From IMG/VR virus record IMGVR_UViG_2695420523_000022: a stretch of DNA of 15,244 bases; one strand, written 5' to 3'. The position numbers and the translations under genes were made by a program. Of the stretch, positions 1-15,244 are shown in pieces. Origin of the DNA: a virus (taxonomy: Duplodnaviria > Heunggongvirae > Uroviricota > Caudoviricetes). The notes under the pieces are model-generated. The model was not told where the DNA came from, made no database searches, and was given only the letters and a program-made list of their open reading frames with translations. Every line of letters starts with the position of its first letter. Positions within the stretch are counted from its first letter, which is position 1.

Positions 1-165
1 ATGGCAAAGCCGATCATCACGCTCAATGGCCTAAAAATCGTCATTATGTTGGGAATGCTGGTCATTATTCTCTGCGGTATCCGTTTTGCCGCCGAGATCA
101 TCGTGCCGTTTATTCTCGCATTATTTATTGCTGTTATATATAACTTATTTCACATAATACGTTGA
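1..165 (+). pseudogene. tqsA: 5' fragment of a tqsA-like (AI-2 exporter, PerM/YdgG family) membrane protein gene, truncated by insertion of the element
   Basis: ATG at 1; translation [45 protein letters not shown] is a hydrophobic transmembrane N-terminus I recognise from memory as the TqsA/YdgG start. The frame then runs into AT-rich sequence and stops at 163-165 after 54 codons. Confidence 0.55.
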
Positions 166-211
166 TTTAATTAAATAATTTTCACCGCAAAAAGTGCCAA
201 AAATCGCAAAA

Positions 212-233
212 TGACTACACCAGTGACTACACC
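212..233. repeat. Direct repeat TGACTACACC x2 (212-221 and 224-233) close to the insertion junction; candidate integrase arm-type sites
   Basis: Two exact 10-bp copies with 12-bp start-to-start spacing, about 70 bp from the junction. Confidence 0.3.
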
Positions 234-250
234 GTTCGGTGCACTGTATG

Positions 251-280
251 AAACAACGTGGAACAAATAGACACAAGAAA
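251..280 (+). promoter_or_regulatory. Array of 10-bp-phased GAACAA-like pentamers (aAACAAcgtg gAACAAatag acACAAgaaa); candidate binding array
   Basis: The same 15-mer AACAACGTGGAACAA occurs at 7754-7768; unit and cgtg spacer also match the array at 13931-13980 on the other strand. Confidence 0.45.
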
Positions 281-495
281 TATACAGGCGGATCATCTTT
301 CCAGGGGGAAGCGCACCAATTCATGAGGGGCGTTAATGTCGATATGGGGATCCCCACCTACCGGAATTTTTTTCCGGTTAAACGTTAATCAGGCTGGTGG
401 GCTTTACCTGTTCGGTAGGTGTTATGATTATCGTAATACCTTTCCCCCAATGGGGTAAAAGCATCAACCGTAACGAAAGTCGTTATGGTTGCCAC

Positions 496-570
496 TGATA
501 CCCCAAATTTGGGTATCACGAGTAAGACCCAAAATCTGGGTGTTACTCTTACTACCCAAACTACGGGTAG
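496..570. repeat. Three palindromic sites of the form ACCC-N7-GGGT centred at 507, 534 and 561, exactly 27 bp apart
   Basis: TGATACCCCAAATTTGGGTATCA (496-518), ACCCAAAATCTGGGT (527-541), TACCCAAACTACGGGTA (553-569); the second is nested in a 7-bp outer stem AGTAAGA/TCTTACT. Confidence 0.5.
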
Positions 571-589
571 TTTCCGTAGTTTCATGGTC

Positions 590-609
590 GAGTTGCAGAT
601 CTGCAACTC
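590..609. repeat. 20-bp perfect palindrome GAGTTGCAGATCTGCAACTC
   Basis: Exact reverse-complement symmetry; no adjacent T-run on either strand, so not a canonical terminator. Confidence 0.5.
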
Positions 610-901
610 CCCCATTAACCACAGGCGAATTTCCGCCTTCGGTCATTCCTTAATCATCTGCGTAATCATAATGATTATTCAGCAAGCGCAATTTTGCGCT
701 TTGCTTAAAGTTCAGCGAGTTACCGCGCCGACTTCCTCAAATTGAGGTTTCCGAAATATCAGCGGGTTAGCGATTAAGCTGTTCATTAATTAAACTGCGA
801 AAATTTCGTAGTTTGTGACTGTCTTTCAGGCAGCTTGTTAACAGTCCTCAGAAGCGAGGGATGTAGCCACCCATTTTTGGTCCGTCGGGAATATCAACCA
901 G

Positions 902-1183
902 TTACCGCCGCAACCGCTCCGGCTTCTTCCAGTGGTACGTTATTTTCTCCTTCTCCCGATACATCTCCACGCGGCGACGGTAGGCCAGCAACTCAAGAAC
1001 TCTGGTTCGTATGTTGCGCATATCCACGCCATTAAGTTCTATACCATCACGGCGCATCACCTCAGCAACAACACGCGCATAGTTTTCGGCTGTCACGCTG
1101 TCCGGCTGCGTGGCCTGTTCGTCAGCCTGCTGGCTGATTCCGGCAACGCGGCGGATTAATCCCGTTATTTCGGCTTCTGTCAT
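902..1183 (-). CDS. Hypothetical protein (93 aa) co-transcribed downstream of terL
   Basis: ATG at 1183 preceded by GAGGT with 7-nt spacing, 13 nt after the terL stop; charged, non-repetitive translation; no family recognised. Confidence 0.45.
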   Translation of the reverse strand: MTEAEITGLIRRVAGISQQADEQATQPDSVTAENYARVVAEVMRRDGIELNGVDMRNIRTRVLELLAYRRRVEMYREKEKITYHWKKPERLRR

Positions 1184-1196
1184 GCTGCTGACCTCA

Positions 1197-2858
1197 TTAC
1201 ACCCCGCTAAATTCTTCCAGTTTCTGGCGGTGGCTGTCGCTTATATCAAAAGCAAAATCCTCATGCTCTGCCTGGAATGTACCAAACGCCATCAGCGCCG
1301 CCACGCTCGGGTCTATCTTGTTCGGTGATTTTTTCTTGTTCGGCTTGATATTGGCGTTCGCGTCACTCTGCATCACGACGTTACTCATCGACCAGGACAA
1401 CACCGGATCGCCACGATGCACAATCACCCTGCGGTTAACAAAAACTTCGAACGATTTCGCCGCCGGACTGAATCTGAGGTAGGTTTGCGGGAACGGCTCC
1501 ACCTCAAAACCTGCCCCCTGTAATTGCGTTCTGAGATGCGTGGCGTTCCACGTATCAAAGCCCACCAGCCTGATATTAAATTTCTCCGCGTCCTGCATGA
1601 TGTCATCTCTGATCCGGTCGTAATCAATGCAGTCGCCAGGCGTTGTGCGTATCCAGCCTGCTTTAGCCCACTGACGATAGATGGCGCGGTTTTTATTGGC
1701 GGGGTTCTGTAGCTGGAACTCCGGCAGATAATGACGGGAAACCAGCATAATGGTTTTACCGACCGGAAAGGCATAGCACACGCTGGAAATATCGCTTGTG
1801 GATGATAAATCCAGCCCCGCGTAACACTCCTGGCCGTGTAAATCTTCCTCCGTGAACGTTCCGGCACACTCAGCCCATGCGCCGTTACCCATCCACGGGG
1901 TAGTCCCCTGACACCAGATATTAAATCGCTTTGTCATCATCTCCACCCACTGCGACGGAATACCCCGCGCTTTCTGGATGGTTGAGGCCAGTTTTTCACG
2001 ATCCACGGAAACATCAATATTAGGGTTCGCCTTTATCCACATCGCCGGATCATCAACCTCGTTTTCGTCGTCCAGTTCGTAAATCAGTACAAAAATTGAA
2101 TCGTTGACCTCTTCGCCGTCCAGGATCTGGCAGCAATAATCATAGTGCTGCTTACAGGCTGAAACGACGTTACTGCCTGATGTGGTAATAGCAAATAACA
2201 GCCCTTCGGGACGTGCGCCCATCCCCAGCTCAAGCGCGGAATAAACGCCGTTATCGGGGTGCAAGTGGTATTCGTCCACGATGGCAAGACTCGGGTTTGT
2301 ACCTTCAATGGTTGCCGCTTTTGCTGCCAGCGGCTTTAACAGGCTGTTGCTTTTCGGGTGTATCACCTTATGCGCCTGAATATTCACCCGCCTGCGTAAC
2401 GGTCGGGATAAAAGGCACATCTGACGCGCATCATCAAAGACGATCCGCGCCTGGTCACGGCTCACCGCTGCGGTGTAAATATCCTGCTGACCGTTCTCCA
2501 TAATCAGAAACCAGTCAGCCAGAATCGCGGCGGTCGTGGATTTCGCATTTTTGCGCGGCACTTCGATAAAGGCGCTCGTGTATTTGCGCCGTCCGGTGGC
2601 CTTAACCTTAAAGCCGAGGATGCACGCAAAGGCGAACTGCTGCCACGGCTCCAGCTCAATGGGTCTGCCACGCATCGGCCCTTTTACGTGCGGGCACACC
2701 CTTGAAAAGGCAATAAACCGCTCCACAACCTCACGATCGAACGTGTAAAGGGGGCTTTTAAGGTCCGAAAAGTACCGTTTAACAGCCTGTTTTAACCGTT
2801 TACAGGCCGGAATTTTGCCCGTTTTTACGTCTTCTGCGTACTTATTCCAGGCGGTCAA
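1197..2858 (-). CDS. terL: Terminase large subunit (553 aa)
   Basis: Size and translation typical of a phage terminase ATPase/nuclease large subunit; TTG start at 2858 with strong SD (AAGAGGA, 5-nt spacer) and no in-frame ATG nearby; overlaps terS by 17 nt. Confidence 0.85.
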   Translation of the reverse strand: MTAWNKYAEDVKTGKIPACKRLKQAVKRYFSDLKSPLYTFDREVVERFIAFSRVCPHVKGPMRGRPIELEPWQQFAFACILGFKVKATGRRKYTSAFIEVPRKNAKSTTAAILADWFLIMENGQQDIYTAAVSRDQARIVFDDARQMCLLSRPLRRRVNIQAHKVIHPKSNSLLKPLAAKAATIEGTNPSLAIVDEYHLHPDNGVYSALELGMGARPEGLLFAITTSGSNVVSACKQHYDYCCQILDGEEVNDSIFVLIYELDDENEVDDPAMWIKANPNIDVSVDREKLASTIQKARGIPSQWVEMMTKRFNIWCQGTTPWMGNGAWAECAGTFTEEDLHGQECYAGLDLSSTSDISSVCYAFPVGKTIMLVSRHYLPEFQLQNPANKNRAIYRQWAKAGWIRTTPGDCIDYDRIRDDIMQDAEKFNIRLVGFDTWNATHLRTQLQGAGFEVEPFPQTYLRFSPAAKSFEVFVNRRVIVHRGDPVLSWSMSNVVMQSDANANIKPNKKKSPNKIDPSVAALMAFGTFQAEHEDFAFDISDSHRQKLEEFSGV

Positions 2859-3198
2859 GCTCGTCCTCTTCTTCTGTTTCCGGTGGATTTTTACGGCGGC
2901 TTACCGGGTCAAAACCGAGCAAGGAGGCCATTTTTATCATCACTCTTTCAGCGTCGGATTTTGCGCTTAATGCGGGGTTTCTGCTCTCGCCGCCCTGACT
3001 GTTAACAATGCTGAACCCGCGTGCCGCAAGGTCTGCGACGGCTTTCCGGTATATCGAGTAATTGACGCAATACAGTTCCAGATTACTCCAGTCGGCGGGG
3101 GTAAGGTCTCCCCGTTCCGCAAGCTGCCGCGATTTTTCCCGCCACTGCTTCACGGCGATATCATCCAGGTAGGCGGGGGCTTTCGGTGGTCTTGCCAT
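2842..3198 (-). CDS. terS: Terminase small subunit, P27 family (118 aa)
   Basis: N-terminus MARPPKAPAYLDD and overall composition match the P27-family small terminase as I recall it; immediately upstream of terL. Confidence 0.75.
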   Translation of the reverse strand: MARPPKAPAYLDDIAVKQWREKSRQLAERGDLTPADWSNLELYCVNYSIYRKAVADLAARGFSIVNSQGGESRNPALSAKSDAERVMIKMASLLGFDPVSRRKNPPETEEEDELDRLE

Positions 3199-3321
3199 GC
3201 TTATTTTTTCGCCAGATTATTTTTCAAAAAATTCCCGTGCATAAAAATTTGAGGAGGCGTTCGGTGCCCGGCGGGGTCGGGTTTGTCCTGAAAACGCCCC
3301 CCACCCCGTCATACAGCCTCA

Positions 3322-3504
3322 TCAGCGATTGCGGAAACATTCCATAACCTCGCGGTCACGGTCGGTTAATCGCTTCGCTGTGATGCGTTCTGCGCGTCCT
3401 GACGCTTTATCTTTATGCCCTGTTTCCTGTGTCTTCCATGCGTCACGCTGCCTTATAAGTCCACGGATAAGGCGTTTTTGTTCCCGCTCATTCATCAGCG
3501 TCAT
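3322..3504 (-). CDS. Possible small basic protein (60 aa) between HNH and terS; uncertain
   Basis: ATG at 3504 gives MTLMNEREQKRLIRGLIRQRDAWK, overlapping the HNH stop by 17 nt; weak SD; could be a spurious frame. Confidence 0.25.
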   Translation of the reverse strand: MTLMNEREQKRLIRGLIRQRDAWKTQETGHKDKASGRAERITAKRLTDRDREVMECFRNR

Positions 3505-3928
3505 ACATCCAGTTATTGCGGTTAGCGGCCCGTTCTTCCTCTTCACGAAATCCACCTGCGGCACGCTTGCTTTTTGTTGCTGGATCAAGCCACTTCGTTT
3601 TCTGGTTATGACACGCCTGGCACAATGGCTGATGGTTCCATTCGGGCCAGAAGAGAACATCATCACCGCCATTAATCGGGATAATGTGATCCACCACCAC
3701 GGCGGGCGTATATATCCCCTTCTCAAGGCATCGCACGCATAACGGGTTTTTACTCAGATACATGGCGCGGTATTTTTCCCACTGTCTGGAGTACCCACGC
3801 GCGCGGCGGTGTCCTCGTCTGGCATCCTCTGCACGCCATGCCGCCCGCCTGTGCTCCTCACACTTGCCGGACTTAACGCGCCTGTTACAGCCTGGTTCTG
3901 TACATCGTCTTAATGGTTGCCACGGCAT
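3488..3928 (-). CDS. HNH endonuclease (146 aa), packaging-associated
   Basis: Cys pairs (CTEPGC, CEEH, CVRC, CQACH) plus DHIIP and NHQPLC motifs typical of HNH; placed directly before terS/terL as in HK97-like phages; ATG overlaps the connector stop. Confidence 0.8.
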   Translation of the reverse strand: MPWQPLRRCTEPGCNRRVKSGKCEEHRRAAWRAEDARRGHRRARGYSRQWEKYRAMYLSKNPLCVRCLEKGIYTPAVVVDHIIPINGGDDVLFWPEWNHQPLCQACHNQKTKWLDPATKSKRAAGGFREEEERAANRNNWMYDADE

Positions 3929-4224
3929 CAGTACACCCCCACATCACGGTAAGCCGTCCAGAGCGCGCCAATCGTCATGGGTACGCGCGTTTTTGCGTTA
4001 TCCGCTACCAGCTGGCGATTCTCGTACAGGTGAGCGATAAACATCATGCAGCCAATCTTTATGGCTGGCGTGAACTCCAGCCCGTCATCAAAGCGCCTGC
4101 CTATATGTATCTGGCACGCCTCAAGCGATGCGGCAATGTATCCGCTGATTAACTGGTCTTCCTCGTCGCCATCGATGCGGCAATGGAGTTTCACTTCTTC
4201 CAGGGTGATAAGTTCTTCTGTCAT
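3928..4224 (-). CDS. Head-tail connector protein, gp6-like (98 aa)
   Basis: MTEELITLEEVKLHCRIDGDEEDQLISGYIAAS matches the gp6-like connector N-terminal pattern; position between head closure and HNH. Confidence 0.65.
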   Translation of the reverse strand: MTEELITLEEVKLHCRIDGDEEDQLISGYIAASLEACQIHIGRRFDDGLEFTPAIKIGCMMFIAHLYENRQLVADNAKTRVPMTIGALWTAYRDVGVY

Positions 4225-4559
4225 TTTTCCGCGCCCTCACGACAAAGAATTTCAAGGCGTGTCCTGGCGGCATCCGGCAGCGGTTGCCCGATGATATTCA
4301 GTACACGCCCCGCCAGCGGCCCCGTATTGACCTTTATCCGGCTGGTGGCGTTGATGTCCTTCCGGTACCGTATCCAGATCCTTACGGTACCAATCGCCAG
4401 CTCTGCACCCGATGAAATGGCCTCCTTGCTGCTGATCATGTTCACGCTTGCCCAGAGTGTGTGACCGTCCTCCCACGTTTCGAGTATTTCGCCGGTTATA
4501 TCCCTGGTCTGTTTCAGGGTCTGAATCGTTACCCTGTCACGCAGTCGCCCTATGTTCAT
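4221..4559 (-). CDS. Head closure / head-tail adaptor protein (112 aa from ATG at 4559)
   Basis: RDRVTIQ...WASV...IRYRKDI...RI pattern typical of the head-tail joining family; ATG at 4559 overlaps the portal stop; the track ORF extends to 4601 but has no better start. Confidence 0.65.
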   Translation of the reverse strand: MNIGRLRDRVTIQTLKQTRDITGEILETWEDGHTLWASVNMISSKEAISSGAELAIGTVRIWIRYRKDINATSRIKVNTGPLAGRVLNIIGQPLPDAARTRLEILCREGAEK

Positions 4560-5767
4560 TCCGGTTTTTCTCCCTCGCTGATTTTTACTTCCTGTTTCCA
4601 TGCCTGGCTGAACTCATCACCACCATCACGCGGGGACAGCCCTTCACGTTCGCGGGCTTCGTTCGGGCACATAACGCCGGATTTGATGCCGCGTTCATAG
4701 GTGGCAAAGCGTTCGCCAGGTGTGGCCCGTAACAGGTCCGCGCTGTCAAACTCCACCTGATACCGGATACCAGGTACAGGCGAGGCCACCAGCAGGGCGT
4801 TTTTTATCTGCTGCTCAAAGTTCGCCAGCCACGGGCGCATTGTCATGGTGAGAAATGCGCGGCTTGCCTCGCTGAAATTGCTGTAGGTGCTGTTGCTGTA
4901 TTCCTGCAGAAAAATCGGCGAGACGTTGAACATTCGGGCGATGTCTTCAATGGTGAAGCGACGGGAGGCCAGCCATTCAGCATCCTGATTACTCATGCCC
5001 AGCTGCTGATAGCTCATACCCCCTTCAAGAATGGGCGTTTTTCCGGCGTTTCTGGCTCCTTTGTAGCGTTCCAGTGCGGCTAATGCCTGTTTGCCCTTCA
5101 CGCCGTCCAGCCATTCGCCTGACGTGATAACCCCTGCCGCCATCATGCCATCACGCATCACGCTCGCGCCGTGGCGTTGTTGGGCCAGCCCAAGCCCCAG
5201 CGATTCGCGGCAGATGGTTACAGGTGAGCGCCCCATAAAACCGTCATCCGTGGAGTAACGAAGGTGGAGAACCTCCCACGGTAAATAGTTGCGGGTGTTT
5301 CCGGTGTAGGCGTCAGTGATGCAGTAGCGCCAGTTATGCTCACCTGTCTGCTCAACGTTCACCGACTGCGGCGGGTAAGGATGTAAAGCCACCGGAAAAC
5401 CATCACGCCCCCACTGAATCACCGCATAAGCATTACCGTTTAACAGGCAGTGGCGGATCATCATTCGCTTAAACTGGTAGGGAGTCTGCCACGCGTTCGG
5501 GCGCTCGTTGAGGATGTGATCGACCGGATGAGAATCAAGCCACTCGCGGGCCTCCTTCCCCTTCTCATTGCGTACCAGGTACAGGTAACACGGCATGGTA
5601 GCCACCGCCTCAGAGATGACCGTCACGGCGTTCATGACGGCGGGCAGTGATTCCGCTGTCCCCGATGATACGTACTCACCCGCCCCCGTGTTCGATGTGC
5701 CAGCCAGCGCCATAAATTCATCAAGCGTCATGCTGCGCTGCTCTTTTTTTCTTCTGAAAAGCCACAT
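4556..5767 (-). CDS. Portal protein, HK97 family (403 aa)
   Basis: Size, composition and position between prohead protease and head closure; ATG at 5767 is 1 nt after the protease stop. Confidence 0.8.
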   Translation of the reverse strand: MWLFRRKKEQRSMTLDEFMALAGTSNTGAGEYVSSGTAESLPAVMNAVTVISEAVATMPCYLYLVRNEKGKEAREWLDSHPVDHILNERPNAWQTPYQFKRMMIRHCLLNGNAYAVIQWGRDGFPVALHPYPPQSVNVEQTGEHNWRYCITDAYTGNTRNYLPWEVLHLRYSTDDGFMGRSPVTICRESLGLGLAQQRHGASVMRDGMMAAGVITSGEWLDGVKGKQALAALERYKGARNAGKTPILEGGMSYQQLGMSNQDAEWLASRRFTIEDIARMFNVSPIFLQEYSNSTYSNFSEASRAFLTMTMRPWLANFEQQIKNALLVASPVPGIRYQVEFDSADLLRATPGERFATYERGIKSGVMCPNEAREREGLSPRDGGDEFSQAWKQEVKISEGEKPE

Positions 5768-5768
5768 A

Positions 5769-6341
5769 TCACACCCCCGCTAAATCCACCCACCAGCGGC
5801 GATTATCCGCACGCGGCATTTTTTCTGGGTGCTGCTCATACAGGGAACGGCGGGCCAGCTCCACGCCGGAATCGGGGTAAGCCGGTACCGATGTAACGGT
5901 AATTTCGTACAGTTCCGCCACCAGCACGGTGCGCACGCATGGATCTGTTGTGGTATCCCATACATCCTTACGGGAGCGAAAGCCAAAGCTCATCCCCGAG
6001 ATGTCCCCACGCTTAACCAGTTCGATAACGTCGCGCCCTGTACTGGTATCCGGTGGGGTCAGTTCAAAGCGTAACCCTGTTTCGTCCTCTTCCAGTTTCA
6101 GCGTGCCGGAACGGGTACGCCCCAGCAACATGCTGTGGTCATGCTCATACAGGCCGCGAACGTCATTACCCACCGCAAGCCATTCAGTAAACGCTCCCCG
6201 CTGGAATTTTTCGTAAAACTCCCCCCATAGCAGCTCTGAAAGCTTATCCCAGCGAACAACGTAGCCTGTAAGCGTGTTGCTGGCGCTGGTGGTGATTTCC
6301 GATGACCGGATTTCCATACTCTTCATAATTTTTTCACCCAT
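5769..6341 (-). CDS. Prohead maturation protease, HK97 family (about 185-190 aa)
   Basis: Translation typical of the HK97 prohead protease; lies between capsid and portal; start ambiguous among ATGs at 6341, 6326 and 6317. Confidence 0.75.
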   Translation of the reverse strand: MGEKIMKSMEIRSSEITTSASNTLTGYVVRWDKLSELLWGEFYEKFQRGAFTEWLAVGNDVRGLYEHDHSMLLGRTRSGTLKLEEDETGLRFELTPPDTSTGRDVIELVKRGDISGMSFGFRSRKDVWDTTTDPCVRTVLVAELYEITVTSVPAYPDSGVELARRSLYEQHPEKMPRADNRRWWVDLAGV

Positions 6342-6370: not shown

Positions 6371-6380
6371 CTGTATGCTG

Positions 6381-7538
6381 TTAATCGTCGTCCTGTGGCA
6401 GTTCCAGAATCTTGATCGCGTTCGAATCCACCACGCCACCGCCTAAATATTTCTGCGTGAAAATTTTGATGAAGCCCGGCTCTGTGAGGTTGTCCGGTCT
6501 GGTGCGAACACCTGTTTCGTGATCAACAATGTAGTAACCGCGTTTGAAGTCACCCAGGGCAATAACGTTATCAGGCATAAACTCCAGATATTCGACCGGA
6601 AGGCCCAGCAACGTATCAGGATCACCCGCCTGTAAACGGTCGCGCCAGATGTAATCACCGTTCGCGTTCTTCACCTTCTGAAGTTTTGCCGCCGTCGTGG
6701 AGTTAACCACCCAGACCGCGTTTTTGCGGTATTTTTTACGTAATGCAAATTTCAGGTCGATCAGCGGGTCAGCAGATGTCCACGCCAGAGATTCGGAAGG
6801 TTTAATTACCTGTAACGTACCAAAATCACGCTCTTTGTCGTTCTTCTCTGCACGGGGTACGGATAAAAAGCCTTTTGCTTTTTTGTCACCGTCGCCCACA
6901 ACCAGATCGCTTTCTTCGGTTTCCGTGAAGGTGTCGCCAATCTCACCCGTCAGCCATGAAAGGATGTCCACATCGGAAAAATCCACGATTTCCTGTGTGG
7001 TGCGCGGGTACGCATAGACCGGATACAGCTTAATGCTCACCTCGTTAATCTGCGGGGTGCTGGTCTGTTCGCGTGTCTTACCCTCTTCACCGTGGTTAAC
7101 GGTCGCACCGCCAGCGGAAACAAGCTGCTTAAACTCGTTGCTGCTGATTTTCTTCACGGTACAGATGCGGCGCATGGTGGATTCATCCGTCAGCATTCGC
7201 ATGATTTCGGTGTTCAGTTCGGGGATAACGGTATAACCACCATCAGCGGGAACGCCTGTACTTAATGCGCGGGTTTCACCTGTCAGGATGTAGTTGCGGA
7301 GTTCTGCCGGGTCAGTGGTCTGGCTGCTTTTACCTGGCTTGCTGCGCTCTTCGTCTGCAATGGCTTCAAGGCGGGAAATGTCTTTATCGAGGGATTCAGC
7401 TTTAGCGCGTAATTCGTCAAATTTTGCGCCCTCAGCATCGTTAAGACTGCGGTTTTCTTTTTCCGCGTTCTCCAGCATGTCGCGCATCTGATTTTTAATG
7501 GCGGTTTTCTGCTGGCGTAATTCGATTATTCTCGGCAT
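6381..7538 (-). CDS. Major capsid protein, HK97 fold (385 aa) with N-terminal coiled-coil delta/scaffold domain
   Basis: N-terminal 100 aa are charged and helical (ELRQQKTAIKNQMRDMLENAEKENR...), as in HK97-type capsid delta domains; C-terminal part resembles HK97-family capsids; followed by protease and portal. Confidence 0.85.
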   Translation of the reverse strand: MPRIIELRQQKTAIKNQMRDMLENAEKENRSLNDAEGAKFDELRAKAESLDKDISRLEAIADEERSKPGKSSQTTDPAELRNYILTGETRALSTGVPADGGYTVIPELNTEIMRMLTDESTMRRICTVKKISSNEFKQLVSAGGATVNHGEEGKTREQTSTPQINEVSIKLYPVYAYPRTTQEIVDFSDVDILSWLTGEIGDTFTETEESDLVVGDGDKKAKGFLSVPRAEKNDKERDFGTLQVIKPSESLAWTSADPLIDLKFALRKKYRKNAVWVVNSTTAAKLQKVKNANGDYIWRDRLQAGDPDTLLGLPVEYLEFMPDNVIALGDFKRGYYIVDHETGVRTRPDNLTEPGFIKIFTQKYLGGGVVDSNAIKILELPQDDD

Positions 7539-7829: not shown

Positions 7830-8054
7830 TCAGTCCCTGATCCCTTTCAGAAATTCTATCAATGCATCTATCTGTTCAGGATTTACCGCCAGCATTTCAC
7901 CGGACAGAGCACATCTCACAAAACCATGCTGATCCTTTTCAATCAGTGCGCCCGTCTCCAGGAATGCGCGGTAATCATTGATGCTCATCGTCTCCATGTT
8001 GTCAGCATGGTATTTATCACGCTGTTTTAATATCTCATCAAATTTCATCGGCAT
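7830..8054 (-). CDS. Hypothetical protein (74 aa), moron-like with its own terminator
   Basis: ATG at 8054 (MPMKFDEILKQRDKYHADN...) with SD AGAGGA at 7-nt spacing; flanked by terminators on both sides. Confidence 0.5.
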   Translation of the reverse strand: MPMKFDEILKQRDKYHADNMETMSINDYRAFLETGALIEKDQHGFVRCALSGEMLAVNPEQIDALIEFLKGIRD

Positions 8055-8149: not shown

Positions 8150-8173
8150 AAAAAAAGCCGGATTTCTCCGGCT
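8150..8173 (-). terminator. Rho-independent terminator after the PerC-like gene
   Basis: Minus strand: AGCCGGAGAAATCCGGCT followed by TTTTTTT, 5 nt after the stop at 8179; near-identical to the 7791-7819 terminator. Confidence 0.8.
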
Positions 8174-8178: not shown

Positions 8179-8451
8179 TTAGCTGTCTGGGTAATTACGC
8201 CATATTTCATCGCTTACACCATCTATACCCATTTCAGCATAAGTGCGATCTACTGCCTTTCTCAGGTCTCCGAAGTTATCCGGCGGCTCCGGTGGCTTCT
8301 GTGCCTTCCTGGAACATTCCAGCCGTCGCATCGTAACCTGATGCCGTTCCTTGTCTGTCTCCACCAGCAGCATGACTTCACCCCATCGCGCCGCCGCCCT
8401 CCGGTAAAAGCCTTTCGCCTCGAGTTCTTCCGCTATGCGGTCATGTACCAT
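8179..8451 (-). CDS. PerC-family-like small transcriptional regulator (90 aa); family assignment tentative
   Basis: ATG at 8451 with SD GAGGGGG at 5-nt spacing; motif AEELEAKGFYRRAAARWGEVM resembles the PerC/Pch motif as I recall it; the track ORF from 8571 lacks a credible start. Confidence 0.45.
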   Translation of the reverse strand: MVHDRIAEELEAKGFYRRAAARWGEVMLLVETDKERHQVTMRRLECSRKAQKPPEPPDNFGDLRKAVDRTYAEMGIDGVSDEIWRNYPDS

Positions 8452-8461: not shown

Positions 8462-8872
8462 TCAGAACGGAATACCGTCACCGTAAGGGTCATCGCCTCC
8501 CGCTGGTGGCTGATTACCCTGTGTGCCTGTGGTTTTGCGTCTGTTCCCGCCAGGACGTGCCGCACGGACACTGATTACGCTGTCTGCAATAACCTGATAA
8601 CCCTGCCGCGTTTCCCCGTTCTGTCCGGTCCACTGGCTGACCTGCATCGTGCCGGATACGCTGGCAACGTCGCCTTTTTGATGTTTAGCCAGGAAGTCGG
8701 CCTGCTTACCAAATGCGATGACCGATAGCCATAACGTCGCCTGCCCATCCTGCGCCTGACTACATGGCAACGATACCGCCATACGCGCCAGCGTCATCGG
8801 TGTGCCCTTACTGGTCTGTTTTACCTGCGGGTCGTCCACCAGCCGCCCGTAAGCCGCTATCTGTGCTGTCAT
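8462..8872 (-). CDS. ssb: Single-stranded DNA-binding protein (136 aa)
   Basis: OB-fold-like N-terminus, Gly/Gln-rich linker and acidic C-terminal tail ending DDPYGDGIPF, the canonical SSB tail type; ATG overlaps the upstream stop. Confidence 0.75.
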   Translation of the reverse strand: MTAQIAAYGRLVDDPQVKQTSKGTPMTLARMAVSLPCSQAQDGQATLWLSVIAFGKQADFLAKHQKGDVASVSGTMQVSQWTGQNGETRQGYQVIADSVISVRAARPGGNRRKTTGTQGNQPPAGGDDPYGDGIPF

Positions 8873-9120
8873 GATTCCACCTCTCCGGTTTTAACGTTGA
8901 TGGTTGTTACCTGTTCTGCTTCTGCGATCTCCCGTTCTGTCAGCGTGGCAAAGTTTGCCGCTGCTGTGGTCATGAATGCGCTTATCAGGTCGGGATGTTC
9001 CTTCGCGTATCCTTCCCGCGTGTGGCGGTCTATCGTTCTGATTGCCACCTTTAAGGTGTGCTCAGTCATGTCTAACGCTTTATATTTTGGCTCTGTTCTG
9101 TCTCTGCGTTTTTGGGTCAT
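8869..9120 (-). CDS. Hypothetical protein (83 aa) between the origin and ssb
   Basis: ATG at 9120 (MTQKRRDRTEPKYK...); stop overlaps the ssb ATG; no family recognised. Confidence 0.4.
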   Translation of the reverse strand: MTQKRRDRTEPKYKALDMTEHTLKVAIRTIDRHTREGYAKEHPDLISAFMTTAAANFATLTEREIAEAEQVTTINVKTGEVES

Positions 9121-9131: not shown

Positions 9132-9323
9132 TCTCACTTTTTCGCCTCACTTTTTCAAGCGTCTCACTTCGTCGCAGTTGGGATTTTCGGTTTTTCTATG
9201 TGTGTGTTTCATAAGTATTTTTTTACCCCTCACTTTTGAGGATGTATACAGGTCGAAAAGTGAGGGAGAGCGGGCTAATTTTGGCCCTCTTTCTATCCCC
9301 CTCGCTTTTGCTCCTCACTTTTA
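9132..9323. repeat. Iteron-type replication origin: at least 5 direct copies and 1 inverted copy of CCTCACTTTT around an AT-rich tract
   Basis: CTCACTT at 9133, 9146, 9163, 9229, 9314; inverted copy AAAAGTGAGG at 9257-9266; degenerate CTCGCTT at 9301; AT-rich 9181-9228; lies directly 3' of the replication gene. Confidence 0.65.
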
Positions 9324-10721
9324 TAGCGGCGCTACATCATCCCCATCGATACGAATAACCCCATCTTTTTCCAGCTTGTACAGCCAGCGCCGGAAGTTTT
9401 TCATTTCATACCCCAGCTTTTTCATGTCATCACGTAACAGCGGGATCGTGCACTTGTCGCCGTTCTGTGTGCGTGAACGGATGCACCCCCATAGCGCGGT
9501 ATGGTTTTCCGTCTTGTTCCCTGCCTCCTCGATGCGCTCCAGTTCAACAGGAGGGCGCGGATCATCCACCACCACCAGCGACGTGATTAATTCACCGTCA
9601 GCGTCGGTAAAAAGCTCCACCACGCGTAAGTCATATGCGGCTTCTTTGAGTTCCTCCGCGTCCTTCATTTTGGTGCATGAGATAACCAGCGCTTCGCTTC
9701 CTGCGTCCTCCCTGCGTATCCGGTATTCAGCATCCAGCGAAGCACGAAATGCACTGGAACCGCGCGCGCCTTTCGTCTCATCCTTGCCGGAATGGTGAAC
9801 CACCAGCACCGTGGCCCCTGTGCGTCGTTTCAGTTCGTCACAACCACGGATAAACGCCCCCATATCACGGGAATCATTTTCATCATTCCCACCAAAGCAA
9901 CGCGCCAGCGTATCCAGAATAATCATGCGTACAGGTTTACCCGTTTCCCGCTCCACCTGACGGGCAGCGATAACCATTTCATCAACATCAAGCGGGGCAG
10001 CCGGAAAGATGGGGCGGTTTACCAGATACAGATTTTTCACCTGCTCATCGTGCACAACCTCCCAGGCTTTTACACGACGCGGAACACCTATACCGCCTTC
10101 ACCAACCACATAGAGAACCGCACCATGTGCAACCCTGCGGCCTCCCCACTGGCGACCAGTGGCAACATGGCACGCCCACGATCCGGCAAGGAATGATTTA
10201 TAGGACCCGCTAGCCCCGTATATGCTGCATAGCGATACCGCCGGAATAATCCCCTTAACCACGTAATCCAGTTGCGTGTCGTATCCGGTAGATCCAACGC
10301 TCATCGGTAGCGTGGTTTTTCGCTGGTGGTTTTTTTCTTCCACCGGCTCTTTCCCGCGCACCCGTTCCAGGTATTCGCGCCAGTTCTCCCGCATATGGCT
10401 GTGCATCCCTTCGGGGTAATAATTCGCATCAGTTACACCCGCCGCCGCCAGCTTGTGCGCAATGGCATTAATATTTGATGGCCTGATGTGGCCTGCCTTG
10501 TACAGCCGGACACAATAGCGCCCCTCGTCGATGATTCTCAGGTCTGCCAGTTCATCCAGTTGATCATCAGCCAGCACAACGGGAGGCACATTATCGCCAG
10601 CCAGTCGCCCGTCCTGTTCCTGCCACTGTTTCGCATGTGCCCACGCATCACTACCCGCAAAAATGATGACTTCGGTCATCTTGTCGTAAGGCTGTTTTTT
10701 TAAGTTCGGTGCGCTTTTCAT
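9321..10721 (-). CDS. Replication initiator / RepA-like RecA-fold ATPase, the satellite pri-rep equivalent (466 aa)
   Basis: Walker A-like GASGSYKS, downstream hydrophobic strand then D (MIILDTLARCFGG) and VLVVHHSGKD, typical of RepA/AAA_25-type replicative ATPases; iterons immediately downstream. Confidence 0.7.
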   Translation of the reverse strand: MKSAPNLKKQPYDKMTEVIIFAGSDAWAHAKQWQEQDGRLAGDNVPPVVLADDQLDELADLRIIDEGRYCVRLYKAGHIRPSNINAIAHKLAAAGVTDANYYPEGMHSHMRENWREYLERVRGKEPVEEKNHQRKTTLPMSVGSTGYDTQLDYVVKGIIPAVSLCSIYGASGSYKSFLAGSWACHVATGRQWGGRRVAHGAVLYVVGEGGIGVPRRVKAWEVVHDEQVKNLYLVNRPIFPAAPLDVDEMVIAARQVERETGKPVRMIILDTLARCFGGNDENDSRDMGAFIRGCDELKRRTGATVLVVHHSGKDETKGARGSSAFRASLDAEYRIRREDAGSEALVISCTKMKDAEELKEAAYDLRVVELFTDADGELITSLVVVDDPRPPVELERIEEAGNKTENHTALWGCIRSRTQNGDKCTIPLLRDDMKKLGYEMKNFRRWLYKLEKDGVIRIDGDDVAPL

Positions 10722-11017
10722 TTCTTGCCCCTGAATACGTTAAGCATCTTTTTTATTTCCTGAATATTGGCGCGTGCTTTCTCCCTGCTGGTTGGTTTAC
10801 TGCGGGGCGCTGCCTGTACCAGAGAAAAATCACGCCGGAACTGATAAACAGGCATCACGCAGTCATATTCGTAGCCTTCACGGCGGTAGGTAATGCGTCG
10901 CTCTTCTACACCTTTAATCGTTACGGTGCCGCCGTACTGGTCGCGGTAAATATCGCCGCGCGTAAATTTAGGGTGAGTGTTGCCACTGGCAGTTAAGCCA
11001 GAATATTTAAGTTTCAT
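10718..11017 (-). CDS. Hypothetical protein (99 aa), translationally coupled to the replication gene
   Basis: ATG at 11017 with SD GGAGAA; stop overlaps the downstream ATG (ATGA). Confidence 0.5.
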   Translation of the reverse strand: MKLKYSGLTASGNTHPKFTRGDIYRDQYGGTVTIKGVEERRITYRREGYEYDCVMPVYQFRRDFSLVQAAPRSKPTSREKARANIQEIKKMLNVFRGKK

Positions 11018-11022
11018 TATTT

Positions 11023-11256
11023 TTATTCTCCGGTGTGCTGTTCTTTATATCTGTCGTGCAATATATCTATTTCTTGCAGTTCCATTATTACAGGCTCAAG
11101 AAGCGTTATTAATGCCGTGGCAATTCTTGATTTTTGTTTGTCGCGTTCATTGTCGCCAAGTGTTTCAAGCCATATGCGTAATATTTCCAGCATGTTTTCA
11201 CTGTGAGAAAGTGCAAGAAATGCGCGGTCTATTGTTTCAAGGTAAATATCACGCAT
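11023..11256 (-). CDS. Hypothetical protein (77 aa)
   Basis: ATG at 11256, 1 nt after the upstream stop; MRDIYLETIDRAFLALSHSENMLEILRIWLETLGDNERD; no family recognised. Confidence 0.45.
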   Translation of the reverse strand: MRDIYLETIDRAFLALSHSENMLEILRIWLETLGDNERDKQKSRIATALITLLEPVIMELQEIDILHDRYKEQHTGE

Positions 11257-11257
11257 A

Positions 11258-11836
11258 TTAATCCCCGTCCGTCGTTTTTCTTAAAATAACCTCTGTCACG
11301 AAATCAGCATAATCGGCGACGATATTCAGTACATCAAGCCCCGTTGATTTATATTCTCTCGTGGAAAGTAAGAAAAAAGCCGCTCTAATAAGCTCTGGCA
11401 TTGACGAAAGCGCATCAGCCGCATCATCAGGAACGCCGGAAAATTCCTGTTTCAGGGAATTAAAACGATCATCACGCATGTTTACCCCCTGAATGACCTG
11501 ATAACCGCAACTGGTCAACAACTCGATAAATTCCGGCAGTGTGCCGAAACAGCAATCATCACGCAGCCGTTCGCAGGATACCTCGACGCCGTTTTCGTAG
11601 TGACTCACCATACATCCGGTAAAATGCAGATCATCATCGTGATGGCTCGTTGACGGCTTAATCAGTCGCGCACGTTCCGCCAGTTCCAGCAATGCTTCAA
11701 CGCTTCCGGCAATTGCACCATCCGGCAGGTGATAATTACGCACTATGCGCCCGTTCTCCACATTGACCAGCAACTGCCCGGTAAATTTCTCGTCAAACTG
11801 AATGCTGTTAAGGTCAGAAATTGACAGGTTATGCAT
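11258..11836 (-). CDS. Hypothetical protein (192 aa), largest unknown in the accessory operon
   Basis: ATG at 11836 (MHNLSISDL...) with strong SD AGGAGG at 6-nt spacing; the track start at 11854 has no SD; no motif recognised. Confidence 0.55.
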   Translation of the reverse strand: MHNLSISDLNSIQFDEKFTGQLLVNVENGRIVRNYHLPDGAIAGSVEALLELAERARLIKPSTSHHDDDLHFTGCMVSHYENGVEVSCERLRDDCCFGTLPEFIELLTSCGYQVIQGVNMRDDRFNSLKQEFSGVPDDAADALSSMPELIRAAFFLLSTREYKSTGLDVLNIVADYADFVTEVILRKTTDGD

Positions 11837-12053
11837 GGTGCACCTCCTGCACATCAGCCATGATAATTTTTCCGGCCTTATCCAGTGCCTGATCGGCTTT
11901 TAGCTGCACAAATGTTAAATAATGGAAGATGCATTCTGATTCTCTGGCTGCGTGTTTATGCGCCCTGTCAGCAATAACAGAAATATCAATAAGCGCGTGC
12001 ATCAGCGTAGTGAGCGCGGCGGCGGCTGCGTCCGGTGTGGTTTTATTGCACAT
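11829..12053 (-). CDS. Hypothetical protein (74 aa)
   Basis: ATG at 12053 with SD GGAGGGG; overlaps the upstream gene by 11 nt and the downstream start by 8 nt. Confidence 0.45.
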   Translation of the reverse strand: MCNKTTPDAAAAALTTLMHALIDISVIADRAHKHAARESECIFHYLTFVQLKADQALDKAGKIIMADVQEVHHA

Positions 12054-12273
12054 GTACCCCTCCGCATTTTTTTTCGTTAGAAATAAGCGTTCTTCTTTCC
12101 TGTTCATCGCTCAGGAATACGCAGACCTCACCGCTAAGGCGTTTAAGTAAGCCGATGATTGCCCCTGATTCGCTGTCGGTCATCATGCCAGGGTAATCCT
12201 CTGCCAGTGCGCAAATAACTTCGATTTGGTGGGCGCGTTCTGCTGCCTGTTGTAGTGTGATTTCCTGGCTCAT
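12043..12273 (-). CDS. Hypothetical protein (76 aa)
   Basis: ATG at 12273 overlapping the upstream stop (ATGA); SD AGGGGG 8 nt upstream. Confidence 0.45.
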   Translation of the reverse strand: MSQEITLQQAAERAHQIEVICALAEDYPGMMTDSESGAIIGLLKRLSGEVCVFLSDEQERRTLISNEKKCGGVHVQ

Positions 12274-12470
12274 AAGCCTACCCCCTGACGAATACGGGCA
12301 GCAAATACCATCACGCAGCCAGCCGGAGATTGCTGGCGTGCTTCCTGTTCGCTGGTGGCCTCAATGGTAATCACGCGCGGTTGTGCCGTGCTCAGGGCGA
12401 TAAAACGCCAGATGTATTTATTCAGGTTGTGCGAGTCCCGCCCTTGCGGGTGTATGGTATAATTTCTCAT
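12270..12470 (-). CDS. Small protein (66 aa), first gene of the leftward operon; possibly Icd-like (P4-type host cell division inhibitor family), tentative
   Basis: ATG at 12470 with SD GAGG at 5-nt spacing; MRNYTIHPQGRD...IWRFIALSTAQPRVITIEATSEQEARQQSPAGCVMVFAARIRQG resembles Icd-like satellite proteins as I recall them. Confidence 0.4.
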   Translation of the reverse strand: MRNYTIHPQGRDSHNLNKYIWRFIALSTAQPRVITIEATSEQEARQQSPAGCVMVFAARIRQGVGL

Positions 12471-12567
12471 AGCTGCCTCGATACTGTTGCTATCGTTGGT
12501 GGTTAGACGCCCTGCATGTGTTGCGAGCACTGCGGGGCGTTGCTTAATTTGAGTAACAAAACTCAAA

Positions 12568-12648
12568 CTGTGCGCACAGATTAAAATCATGTGTGCGCAC
12601 ATGTCAATACTTAACATCTCATTTTTTTTACTGTATTGTGTGCGCCCA
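12568..12648. promoter_or_regulatory. Divergent promoter region with three TGTGCGCACA-type operators (12569-12578, 12592-12601, imperfect 12639-12648)
   Basis: Leftward promoter: -35 TTGACA (revcomp of 12602-12607), 16-nt spacer, -10 TTTAAT (revcomp of 12580-12585); one operator fills the spacer, one sits at the predicted start site. Rightward promoter: -35 TTAACA 12611-12616, -10 TATTGT 12634-12639, overlapped by the third operator. Confidence 0.6.
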
Positions 12649-12675
12649 TAAAGTCCATTTAAGTGAGGTGCATCA

Positions 12676-12873
12676 ATGTCTAGCGGTAACAAAAACAACA
12701 AATCAGCAAAGAAAAATATTCGATTCCCACATGAGCTTATAGATGGGATTGATGCCAGCGTTGAACAAGAAAAATTAACTAATCCTAGTGCTAATTTTTC
12801 CGCATGGGTCTTAGATGCCTGTGGACGCAAATTAAAATATGAACAGCGCCGGAAGGCCAAAGAATCAGAATAA
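12676..12873 (+). CDS. YlcI/YnfO-family (DUF3950) small protein, likely ribbon-helix-helix DNA binder (65 aa); candidate island repressor
   Basis: NIRFPHELIDGIDASV...NFSAWVLDACGRKL matches the YlcI pattern (NIRFP...NFSAWVIEACRRRL) as I recall it; SD GTGAGGTG 6 nt upstream; divergent from the operator-bearing promoter. Confidence 0.65.
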   Translation: MSSGNKNNKSAKKNIRFPHELIDGIDASVEQEKLTNPSANFSAWVLDACGRKLKYEQRRKAKESE

Positions 12874-12930
12874 TCACTATCAGCGCCGTGGTGTGAGGAA
12901 CTACGGCGCATTTCTTTACAGGAGTAGACA

Positions 12931-13116
12931 ATGAACAACGAAGAATTACGGGAAATCGCATTATCCATACTTGAAAGACAGGTAGAAAAAAAATTAAGAG
13001 AAATGGATGAAATGCCTGACCATGAACAGGAAGCAAGGCCAAAAAGATTTGCCCTTGAGGATTTTCTTAAAAATTGCCCAAGAAAGATGAGATCGTGGCG
13101 TTGTTGTCCGCCCTGA
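12931..13116 (+). CDS. Hypothetical protein (61 aa) downstream of the ylcI-like gene
   Basis: ATG at 12931 with strong SD AGGAG at 6-nt spacing; MNNEELREIALSILERQVEKKLREMDE... Confidence 0.5.
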   Translation: MNNEELREIALSILERQVEKKLREMDEMPDHEQEARPKRFALEDFLKNCPRKMRSWRCCPP

Positions 13117-13288
13117 TGACAGATTTGCCAACCAGCCAAAAATGTGGCATCGTTGTCGATGCATAGTGTAATCAACATGTATATCATATTTTTGCCTGTA
13201 ATCCGGCAATTGTGGCGCTTCTTCACACAGTTGATATAATTCCAATGCTCATATTTATTTTTTGTGCAGCAGGTTAATCGTTCACAAA

Positions 13289-13318
13289 GGCGCTCAGGTA
13301 ACTGGGCGCTTTTTGTTA
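13289..13318 (+). terminator. Rho-independent terminator between the convergent alpA and ylcI-like transcripts (probably bidirectional)
   Basis: GGCGCTCAG-GTAA-CTGGGCGCT (9-bp stem with two G-U pairs) followed by TTTTTGTT; CCTTTGTG on the other strand. Confidence 0.6.
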
Positions 13319-13463
13319 TGCCTGAAAAACCCCAATTTTGTTGTTTTTCAGTTTCACCAGGGCGAACGAATCCCCGCCCACGTTCTGGCGTATATTCAAT
13401 CTTCATGGTTATAGCTCTGTGTTCAGATGATTGATGTGTGGCGGCTGCGTGCCGCCAGCGTGA

Positions 13464-13652
13464 TTAATGAACTGCCTTGCAGCTATCCTTCCAGGCCAGA
13501 ACCTCGGATAAAGACCAGCCAACGGAACGACCGCCAAGTTTACGACGTGATGGGAATTGTCCGGCCTTTTCCAGGCGGTAGCGGCATGAGCGGCTAAGGC
13601 CTGTTAGCTTTTCGCATTCTTTTTCACGTATAAACCGATCAGTGCTTAACAC
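13464..13652 (-). CDS. alpA: AlpA-family phage regulatory protein / excisionase-like wHTH (62 aa)
   Basis: LTGLSRSCRYRLEKAGQFPSRRKLGGRSVGWSLSEVLAW is the AlpA signature; GTG start at 13652 with SD AAGGGGG at 5-nt spacing. Confidence 0.8.
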   Translation of the reverse strand: MLSTDRFIREKECEKLTGLSRSCRYRLEKAGQFPSRRKLGGRSVGWSLSEVLAWKDSCKAVH

Positions 13653-13930
13653 TATTGCCCCCTTTCGTTTCTTAAAGAGTTATTTCGTGTTCTATTGCGT
13701 TGGGATGTGTCTGATTGTGTCAGGATGATTCAGAGTTGGCAAATGTTGAGGCCGCATGGTTTACAGAAAGAGGAATAATCAGGATAAAATCATTTAAATT
13801 CATGTTAATACAAAGGCATAAAATATTGTTTCATGCCTTTTTTCTCGCTATTTAAAGAGTGATTCGCTAGTGTATAAAAAACCAGTAACACATTAAAAAT
13901 CAGCTACTTATAAATCTGTACACTTTTTCG

Positions 13931-13980
13931 CCTCTTGTTCGTAGTTGTTCCGCATTGTTGCTCATTGTTGCACGTTGTAT
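13931..13980 (-). promoter_or_regulatory. Five tandem 10-bp units each containing TTGTT (GAACAA on the minus strand) between int and alpA
   Basis: cctcTTGTTC gtagTTGTTC cgcaTTGTTG ctcaTTGTTG cacgTTGTAT; same unit and cgtg spacer as the arrays at 251-280 and 7753-7782. Confidence 0.55.
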
Positions 13981-13993
13981 CTGTTCGCATATC

Positions 13994-14009
13994 CAGTATG
14001 CGCATACTG
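13994..14009. promoter_or_regulatory. 16-bp perfect palindrome CAGTATGCGCATACTG, 18 bp beyond the int stop; candidate protein-binding site
   Basis: Exact dyad symmetry; no flanking U-tract on the int strand, so not a canonical terminator. Confidence 0.4.
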
Positions 14010-14026
14010 AAAAAATACGAAAAAAA

Positions 14027-15244
14027 TTATTTTCTTCTGGCTACTGGTAGCGTGGTTACGTTTTCATGTGTTCCCGCCAGTATCCCTAACCGCTCCATCC
14101 ACATATCCAGCACATTGCGTTTAGCATCCAGATAACGGGAATGATTATAAACTCGCTGCATTCCTGGCATCTGGTGGCCTGTAAGCTGCTCCACGACATG
14201 CGGATCAACGCCTAAATCGTTCAGCATGGTTGTAAAGGTGCGCCGGATGTCATGCAGTGACCAGTGAGGATGATTAAGCCTCCTGTGCGCTAATCTTCCA
14301 TACTGCGATACGCTGGCCTCCTGTTTCACTTCCCCCAGCAATAAGCCCGTGTGCCTGTTCTGCTCCACCAGCTGCGTGACGAACGGCAGGATCGCTTCCG
14401 GTATGGGCCGGAATATTGCGACCTTCGTTTTGCTGTGCTCCTTCGGAACGGTCCATAGCATTTCCGTAAAATCCCACTCCCCGATCTCCGATAGCCTCAG
14501 TTCTACCGTCCTGGCTCCGAAGACAATCAGGAGGCGGATTAACGCGACGTAGTAAGGGGAAAATATTTTTTTGTCCAGTGCCTGCAATAATTCGCCAAGT
14601 TCTTTGTTACTTAAGACACGTTCGCTTATATCCGGTTTTTTCCCAACGTCCGCCACGTTCAGATCGTCCAGAACGTTGCTGATTGCATAGCGCCGCCTAC
14701 GGCAGAACTTAAGCGCCTGTTTGCACGCCTGTAGCACGAATCCGGCAGTAACAGGCGTTCGCTTTGCCACCAGGTCAAAACAGGCCAGCCAGTGCCGTAG
14801 CTCGCATTTATCCAGCGGCATAGCACCAATCTGCTGTATTACGTGATTATTAAGTCGCCTTTTCAGGGCGATATAATCCACGCGGTTTTCCTTTACGTAA
14901 TACTCAAGCCAATAGGTGAGCGCATCGCCAACCGTTACGGGCTTTAACGCTTCCTGTACGGTGTAATTCATCTCATGACGTGGATTTTTCCCCTCAGCCA
15001 GCCATGTGCGACACTGTGCGGCTTTTTCCCTGGCTGCTTTCAGGCTCAGATCAGGATAACTTCCCAGCTTAATGCGTTCGGGTCGTGTCTCCCTTCCCGT
15101 TCCGGCCCTGTATGTGAAATACCAGGTCAATTTCCCTGATGTTAAATATTTCACGCTCAGGTTTCCGCCATCACTATAAAACGTGTTTTTCTCCGCTGGC
15201 TTACCATGAAGTTTCCTTAGCAAGGTATCGCTCAGTTTGTTCAT
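14027..15244 (-). CDS. int: Tyrosine integrase, P4-type with N-terminal arm-binding domain (405 aa)
   Basis: N-terminus ...FYSDGGNLSVKYLTSGKLTWYFTYR...IKLGSYPDLSLKAAREKA matches the P4-like integrase N-domain; C-terminal HDIRRT...H..Y catalytic region; ATG sits exactly at the window edge, so the true start and promoter are unseen. Confidence 0.85.
   Translation of the reverse strand: MNKLSDTLLRKLHGKPAEKNTFYSDGGNLSVKYLTSGKLTWYFTYRAGTGRETRPERIKLGSYPDLSLKAAREKAAQCRTWLAEGKNPRHEMNYTVQEALKPVTVGDALTYWLEYYVKENRVDYIALKRRLNNHVIQQIGAMPLDKCELRHWLACFDLVAKRTPVTAGFVLQACKQALKFCRRRRYAISNVLDDLNVADVGKKPDISERVLSNKELGELLQALDKKIFSPYYVALIRLLIVFGARTVELRLSEIGEWDFTEMLWTVPKEHSKTKVAIFRPIPEAILPFVTQLVEQNRHTGLLLGEVKQEASVSQYGRLAHRRLNHPHWSLHDIRRTFTTMLNDLGVDPHVVEQLTGHQMPGMQRVYNHSRYLDAKRNVLDMWMERLGILAGTHENVTTLPVARRK

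Follow-up and report, generated by a model that had tools for sequence, protein, structure and literature searches.

What kind of element encodes a complete phage head and its packaging machinery within about 15 kb, with no tail, is the question raised by the DNA analysed here, a 15,244-nucleotide stretch (hereafter the window) of the IMG/VR virus record IMGVR_UViG_2695420523_000022. A sequence-only reading had described it as a tail-less, capsid-forming satellite that would depend on a helper phage for tails and lysis. According to the results presented below, the window is very probably an intact Escherichia coli capsid-forming phage-inducible chromosomal island (cf-PICI), which is integrated in tqsA and is related to the prototype, EcCIEDL933, as a mosaic sibling. 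The cf-PICIs were defined by Alqurainy et al., and their prototype is a 15.4 kb element of E. coli O157:H7 EDL933 that carries int, alpA, rep, capsid, protease, portal, head–tail connector, HNH, TerS and TerL genes and is without tail genes (10.1101/2022.09.08.507074). The family was characterized by genetic dissection in 2022–23 (10.1101/2022.09.08.507074) and by structure determination in 2025 (10.1101/2025.02.11.637232). The kind of element has already been described, and the operon that defines it is in this case nearly the prototype's own.

The head and packaging operon was compared with that of the prototype, which was located between roxA and phoQ on the chromosome of EDL933, and the proteins were aligned by tblastn. 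The genes of the island lie on the minus strand, except for two small divergent plus-strand genes between alpA and an Icd-like gene; the coordinates given below refer to the minus strand unless stated otherwise. The operon begins with the HK97-fold major capsid protein, which has an N-terminal delta domain (6381–7538; PF05065 Phage_capsid, 2.3e-61) and is 100% identical to that of EcCIEDL933. It is followed by the HK97-family S78 prohead serine protease (5769–6341; PF04586 Peptidase_S78, 9.4e-48; 98.4% identity), the portal protein (4556–5767; PF04860 Phage_portal, 9.1e-91; 99.3%), the head closure or head completion protein Hc1 (4221–4559; PF05521 Phage_HCP, 4.9e-23; phrog_25; 95.5%) and the gp6-like head–tail adaptor Ad1 (3928–4224; PF05135 Phage_connect_1; phrog_40, 4.7e-36; 99.0%). 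The packaging genes are those for the HNH endonuclease (3488–3928; PF01844, 1.8e-8; 98.6%), the small terminase subunit TerS of the P27/Terminase_4 type (2842–3198; PF05119, 4.1e-24; 99.2%) and the large subunit TerL (1197–2858; TerL_ATPase and TerL_nuclease, PF03354 and PF20441; 98.6%). An open reading frame (ORF) of 60 aa (3322–3504; phrog_3173; 98.3%) sits between HNH and terS, as in EDL933, and was assigned as the homologue of gene 1792 by counting the gene order from the capsid gene, 1786. The five head families PF05065, PF04586, PF04860, PF05521 and PF05135 all scored above their gathering cut-offs. The amino acid identity of 95.5–100% across the packaging operon places the island with the established cf-PICI members and bears out the cf-PICI architecture that had been proposed. 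Moreover, the structural genes were translated without internal stops and aligned end to end with their counterparts in three other genomes; all were full-length relative to the prototype, and the frameshifts that would have spoken against a working head module were not seen.

The capsid protein could be placed still more closely. It aligned end to end with the 385-aa chain of PDB entry 9gyi, 'Major head protein', at 854 bits; this entry has four chains, which equals the number of capsid proteins in the published T=4 asymmetric unit. The EcCIEDL933 capsid has T=4 geometry, a diameter of 47.5 nm and four capsid proteins per asymmetric unit (10.1101/2025.02.11.637232). The maturation motif SxGxxAD (STGVPAD) starts at residue 93, in agreement with the published mature N-terminus (10.1101/2025.02.11.637232). 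After 9gyi, the nearest solved capsid relatives were those of the Rhodobacter capsulatus gene transfer agent (6tb9 and 6tba, E of about 3e-46). In HK97-type cos packaging the HNH endonuclease acts as a terminase cofactor, and the cohesive end site (cos) of such genomes sits between HNH/orf60 and terS. By analogy, the probable location of cos in the island is the region between orf60 and terS at 3199–3321, just 5' of terS, where a G/C-rich candidate, GACGGGGTGGGGGGCG...CCGACCCCGCCGGGC, was found. The DNA of cf-PICIs has cohesive ends (10.1101/2025.02.11.637232).

For the prototype, the function of these genes has been established. Each gene of the EcCIEDL933 packaging operon was required for transfer of the island and dispensable for transfer of the phage, and the gene 1792 mutant was severely impaired in transfer (10.1101/2022.09.08.507074). 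A mutation in alpA abolished helper-dependent induction and transfer, and mutations in the tail genes of the helper HK106 also abolished transfer (10.1101/2022.09.08.507074). The small capsids were composed of island proteins and contained island DNA only, and helper phage titres were unaffected (10.1101/2022.09.08.507074). Filled capsids of the prototype that lack tails have also been shown to acquire free tails later. Because the operons are 95.5–100% identical, the mechanism of the prototype is the best supported one for the present island.

The boundaries of the island were determined by comparison with the empty site in E. coli K-12 and with the island locus of strain DETEC-S792 (NZ_CP116067; locus L001), which is 99.5% identical. 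Bases 1–137 of the window (plus strand) are host flank, a 5' fragment of tqsA cut by the insertion: they match bases 1–137 of K-12 tqsA and diverge from base 138, carry a partial annotation as autoinducer-2 (AI-2) transporter in L001, and were matched in essentially all complete E. coli genomes (Megablast). In L001, tqsA restarts 188 bp past the position equivalent to the end of the window, with an overlap of 9 bp, TGCTGTTAT, between its two fragments. This att core lies at 129–137 at the int-distal end, and the second core, read from the L001 copy, lies about 188–196 bp beyond base 15244. From core to core, the island measures 15,303 bp, and its site is tqsA, the gene of an AI-2 exporter. It is thus a discrete, att-bounded and site-specific island within the size range of the class (about 10–16 kb), and in K-12 the site was confirmed to be empty. 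The extent of 136–15244 proposed earlier was accurate within 2 bp at its start, given that the tqsA identity ends at 137, and fell short at its end: window positions 138–15244 hold nearly the whole island, and about 196 bp on the int-proximal side fall past the window. The window ends at the ATG of int, and the RefSeq start of int lies 12 nt further upstream. A tandem pair of RTGACTACACC (210–233, plus strand) forms a 23-nt repeat that recurs beside the int start in L001 (23058–23080). These repeats are probably arm-type binding sites of the integrase.

The flanks of the L001 copy are asr, ydgD, mdtI, mdtJ and tqsA' on one side and 'tqsA, pntB, pntA and ydgH on the other, in the gene order of K-12. 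The gene tqsA is split after codon 45, and in-frame stops were found just 5' of the 3' fragment (L001 23208–24114); because of these stops, tqsA is probably inactivated by the insertion. Integrative elements that disrupt tqsA were reported previously (PMC3603311, PMC7192596), and tqsA has been listed as one of the genes in which integrity is under the control of such elements (PMC7192596). A text search of the literature for tqsA together with PICI gave no match, and tqsA could not be confirmed as one of the six published cf-PICI bacterial attachment sites (attB). No tRNA gene was found in the window by ARAGORN and no RNA family at the Rfam gathering thresholds; hence, the attB is not a tRNA gene and no known RNA family is aboard.

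The early region has the PICI-type organization of int, alpA and an AAA_25 RepA gene with an adjacent origin. It consists of a tyrosine integrase (14027–15244; Arm-DNA-bind_3 and Phage_integrase, Pfam; 90.6% identical to that of EcCIEDL933), an AlpA-family regulator (13464–13652; PF05930 Phage_AlpA, 5e-18; 98.4%) and a RepA-type replicative helicase or initiator of 466 aa (9321–10721; AAA_25, 2.4e-43; phrog_2850 over the full length). The int, alpA and RepA-like genes and the full HK97-type head and packaging set, which the sequence-only reading had listed, were all recovered intact on the minus strand in the order claimed (Pfam, PHROGs). The replication origin (9132–9320), also predicted there, has six AAAAGTGAGR iterons, of which five are direct and one is inverted, in a stretch that begins one base past the rep stop codon. 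A direct motif search gave eight matches to AAGTGAGR in the window against 1.9 expected; none of 200 shuffles reached eight, and six of the eight lie within 9132–9320. The iterons were missed by Tandem Repeats Finder because they are dispersed.

The origin was then aligned with that of the sibling island of E. coli O157:H7 F6321 (window 9132–9320 against L002 17117–17320). The six repeats occupy the same positions, and all six differ between the siblings at one and the same base, with AAAAGTGAGG in the window (GTGAGG) and AAAAGTGGGG in F6321 (GTGGGG). Between the RepA proteins of the two islands (94% identity) there are 27 differences, 12 of which fall within the last 60 residues. The pattern suggests that origin specificity was switched in a concerted way. 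We infer from the aligned sequences that the concerted change of iterons and RepA C-terminus fits functional iterons with a cognate binding domain.

This co-variation bears on the main residual uncertainty, namely that the present copy is inactive or that its host is without a helper. The island might be a cf-PICI by descent that no longer functions or cannot be mobilised in the host it now has, either for want of a compatible helper or owing to a mismatch of Rep and origin or of integrase and att after shuffling. The replacement of rep and the change of attB relative to the prototype are in favour of this explanation, as is the report that none of the 17 resident EDL933 prophages acted as an efficient helper (10.1101/2022.09.08.507074). 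However, the co-varying iterons and RepA C-terminus point to maintained function, and every ORF is intact. Furthermore, at least 80% of the window was present in 146 records from 147 genomes (Megablast against complete E. coli genomes), and the tqsA junction was found in 246 of 5,426 complete E. coli genomes; recent mobility is implied by such a wide spread. An inactive copy was hence judged unlikely.

Whether the head genes belong to a decaying prophage was evaluated from the content of the island and its surroundings. Islands of this type were formerly annotated as cryptic prophages, and the head and packaging genes are indeed phage-derived, such that an HK97-like prophage stripped of tail and lysis genes by deletion, and not an autonomous satellite, could be imagined. 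No tail, baseplate, tape-measure, holin or endolysin/lysis family was matched by Pfam or PHROGs among the called minus-strand genes and the larger leftover ORFs of either strand, in accordance with the absence claimed before. Tail and lysis genes continuous with the module just outside the window had been named as the finding that would overturn the satellite reading; none occurred in the flanks of the L001 copy, which run directly into mdtJ/tqsA' and 'tqsA/pntB/pntA. No tail, lysis or lysogeny-switch module, nor a remnant of one, was found in the island or in these flanks. For a deletion remnant, precise att junctions at both ends in an otherwise intact core gene would be unexpected, and the early module is of the int–alpA–rep type, without CI/Cro or phage O/P. 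Moreover, the 15.3–15.4 kb gene layout recurs with intact ORFs at different attB sites (tqsA and roxA–phoQ) in many lineages. Among 50,697 phage records, Megablast gave only four weak partial matches, with at most 13% coverage and 75–78% identity; no phage record shares more of the sequence than this, and identity with a deposited phage was rejected on the same grounds, the best of the four covering at most 13%. An almost identical module has been proven functional in EcCIEDL933, and a decayed prophage is accordingly highly improbable. A classical PICI that remodels helper capsids, with its own capsid genes serving to interfere with the helper, is barely credible, because despite int, alpA and PerC genes of the classical E. 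coli kind the island has the complete set of capsid, protease, portal, adaptor, head closure, HNH, TerS and TerL genes, and the 95.5–100% identical prototype module builds small capsids of island proteins with helper titres unaffected.

The reading of the window as an intact cf-PICI was not contradicted by any sequence evidence, and several points nonetheless weigh against taking it too far. Functional experiments were carried out with the prototype and a few others, and the present island is known from its sequence alone. Its RepA-type rep, its attB and several early ORFs are unlike those of the tested prototype; hence, inducibility and helper range could differ. In addition, the helper phage is beyond the reach of a 15 kb window, and cos was located by analogy only. 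What was read directly from this island is its gene content, its intactness, its boundaries and iterons and how nearly identical it is to the prototype; helper induction, T=4 size, exclusive packaging and hijacking of tails are expected by analogy with EcCIEDL933.

With these reservations, the life cycle of the cf-PICI in tqsA may be envisaged as follows. The integrase would recombine the island into and out of tqsA at the 9-bp core TGCTGTTAT, and, as in the prototype, a helper phage would trigger expression of alpA, upon which the island would excise and express its genes. The iteron origin, which lies just downstream of rep, would then be fired by the RepA-type helicase or initiator with the assistance of the single-stranded DNA-binding protein (SSB) of the island. 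The HK97-fold capsid protein would assemble on the portal, the S78 protease would remove the delta domain at STGVPAD, and the product would be a small T=4 shell of about 47 nm, sized for about 15 kb. TerS, TerL and HNH would cut the island's own cos, probably between orf60 and terS, such that the shell is filled with island DNA only; Ad1 and Hc1 would seal the portal and offer a docking surface. Tails and lysis would be provided by a helper siphophage, or free tails would be met after release.

A further reading in two parts was considered, in which the RepA-type tqsA island is a functionally distinct cf-PICI lineage and the disruption of tqsA links AI-2 export to excision. The first 122 residues of the RepA-type protein are related (67%) to the 710-aa DUF927 protein of EcCIEDL933 (L004 24038–26170), which suggests a common N-terminal domain fused to different replication engines. 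The distinct lineage was proposed because this N-terminal domain is shared by RepA and the DUF927 protein and because the iterons switch together with the Rep C-terminus. If it were true, the capsid operon would be fixed while replication specificity is exchanged, and AI-2 export would be coupled to excision of the satellite through a reversible disruption of tqsA, a case of 'regulated gene integrity'. This reading is held only tentatively and is more doubtful than not by a wide measure. Neither the distinct lineage nor the link to quorum signalling would alter the kind of element.

The remaining features of the early region are small genes. The two plus-strand genes, both annotated by RefSeq in L001, encode a YlcI/YnfO family protein (12676–12873; phrog_949, 1.9e-27) and a 61-aa product (12931–13116) that matches no PHROG family. 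The Icd-like protein, a cell-division inhibitor or repressor-like protein named as such by RefSeq in L001, is encoded at 12270–12617 (phrog_6196, 7.2e-55). A 378-aa frame at 12270–13406 was rejected as an accessory gene, save for its last 115 codons, which are the Icd-like gene (phrog_6196); the remainder has no family match, lies antisense to the two annotated plus-strand genes (12676–12873 and 12931–13116) and is probably untranslated. Four small ORFs form the variable early region: 11023–11256 (phrog_2196), 11258–11854 (phrog_2512, phrog_340 and phrog_24341), 11829–12053 (phrog_5146) and 12043–12273 (phrog_1478). They have a weak match or none in EcCIEDL933 and are 93.5–100% identical in the sibling O157 island, where the match of the 198-aa ORF covers only its first 123 of 198 residues. 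This ORF (11258–11854) shows three separate PHROG families along its length, and the same region is occupied by two ORFs of 73 and 121 aa in F6321; either the two are fused here or a frameshift separates them in F6321. A DUF4222 protein is encoded at 10718–11017 (PF13973, 3e-24; 90.9% identical to that of the prototype). No defence system was matched by PADLOC among the seven small called ORFs, the 378-aa frame and both genes of the plus strand. The earlier suggestion of a possibly new accessory gene set did not hold: each small minus-strand ORF was placed in an existing PHROG family, and most of the window recurs in the 146 records mentioned above. Between int and alpA, short tandem repeats were observed, TTGTTGCACA in 3.4 copies at 13945–13978 and AATCATGTTAA in 3 copies at 13777–13808; upstream of alpA, they may serve as sites at which a regulator binds. 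In the promoter scan, consensus promoters were fewer than in shuffled sequences, and no promoter claim is supported.

Downstream of the origin, the window encodes an 83-aa ORF (8869–9120; phrog_1231, 2.7e-53), the SSB (8462–8872; PF00436, 3.8e-17; 99.3% identical to that of EcCIEDL933) and a PerC-family transcriptional regulator (8179–8451; PF06069, 9.1e-45; 100%). A PerC-like protein of another PICI represses the enterocyte effacement locus (LEE), and that of EcCIEDL933 is stated, in a passage of the same source that cites Porter et al. (2005), to have been without effect on LEE1 promoter fusions (PMC11773190). The following 74-aa ORF (7830–8054; phrog_1957; 100% identity) lies just upstream of the capsid operon, between two terminator-like hairpins of nearly the same sequence, AGCCGGAG(A/C)AATCCGGCT with a T-run, at 8173–8156 and 7819–7802 (minus strand). 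Another strong hairpin follows the capsid gene at 6371–6350 (minus strand). Downstream of terL lies a 93-aa ORF (902–1183; phrog_1561, 2.9e-56; 87% identity). In the non-coding int-distal end, a 123-bp piece (about 492–615) within 432–889 is rich in ACCCAAA..TTTGGGT palindromes and was found alone in many other genomes, and some part of 425–895 was matched in 1,135 of the 5,426 genomes.

As a class, cf-PICIs are abundant; they make their own capsids, take tails alone from phages and are able to cross between species by 'tail piracy'. No new principle is offered by the present island, which is a further intact copy with essentially the capsid operon of the prototype. Its use is as a well-delimited example, whose att core is exactly defined and which offers arm-type repeats, the iterons of the origin and a probable cos region, and it illustrates the shuffling of rep/ori and int/attB among siblings around a fixed capsid operon. 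Only the concerted variation of iterons and RepA and the exchange of the rep module are mildly new.

In comparison with known systems, the HK97-like siphophages (e.g., HK106) and HK97 itself share with the island the HK97-fold capsid with a delta domain, the S78 protease, the portal, gp6/gp7-type connectors and HNH-assisted TerS/TerL cos packaging. Their genomes measure about 40 kb, whereas the island measures about 15 kb and is without tail, lysis and lysogeny-switch genes; their capsids are T=7 and that of the cf-PICI prototype is T=4, and the homologues have low sequence similarity. EcCICFT073 and EcCIED1a, which are classical PICIs of E. coli, resemble the island in their size, their int–alpA–rep early module, a PerC-like gene and alpA-dependent induction. 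However, they are without capsid, portal, protease and TerL and redirect the proteins of the helper, whereas a full head and packaging set is present here. Among the siblings, the DETEC-S792 island is the closest, with the tqsA attB, 99.5% nucleotide identity over 97% of the window, and 19 of 23 compared proteins identical and the other four 99.0–99.5% identical; the non-coding stretch of about 460 bp at 432–889 was the sole one that differed. The O157:H7 F6321 island (NZ_CP038369) has the RepA-type rep (94%) and most of the same early ORFs, and differs in its roxA–phoQ attB and in AAAAGTGGGG in every iteron. EcCIEDL933 has the same gene order and size class (15.4 kb, against 15.3 kb here), and its ACTACACC unit is duplicated at both ends as a probable arm-type repeat, as in the present island. 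It differs in its site (roxA–phoQ instead of tqsA), in a 710-aa DUF927 primase-helicase in place of the 466-aa RepA/AAA_25 helicase, in an origin region from which AAGTGAGR iterons are absent, in the small ORFs between alpA and DUF4222, which are other ones or 27–51% identical, and in the int-distal non-coding end (432–889 here). These differences from EcCIEDL933 are module exchange among siblings outside the capsid operon and involve no new biology.

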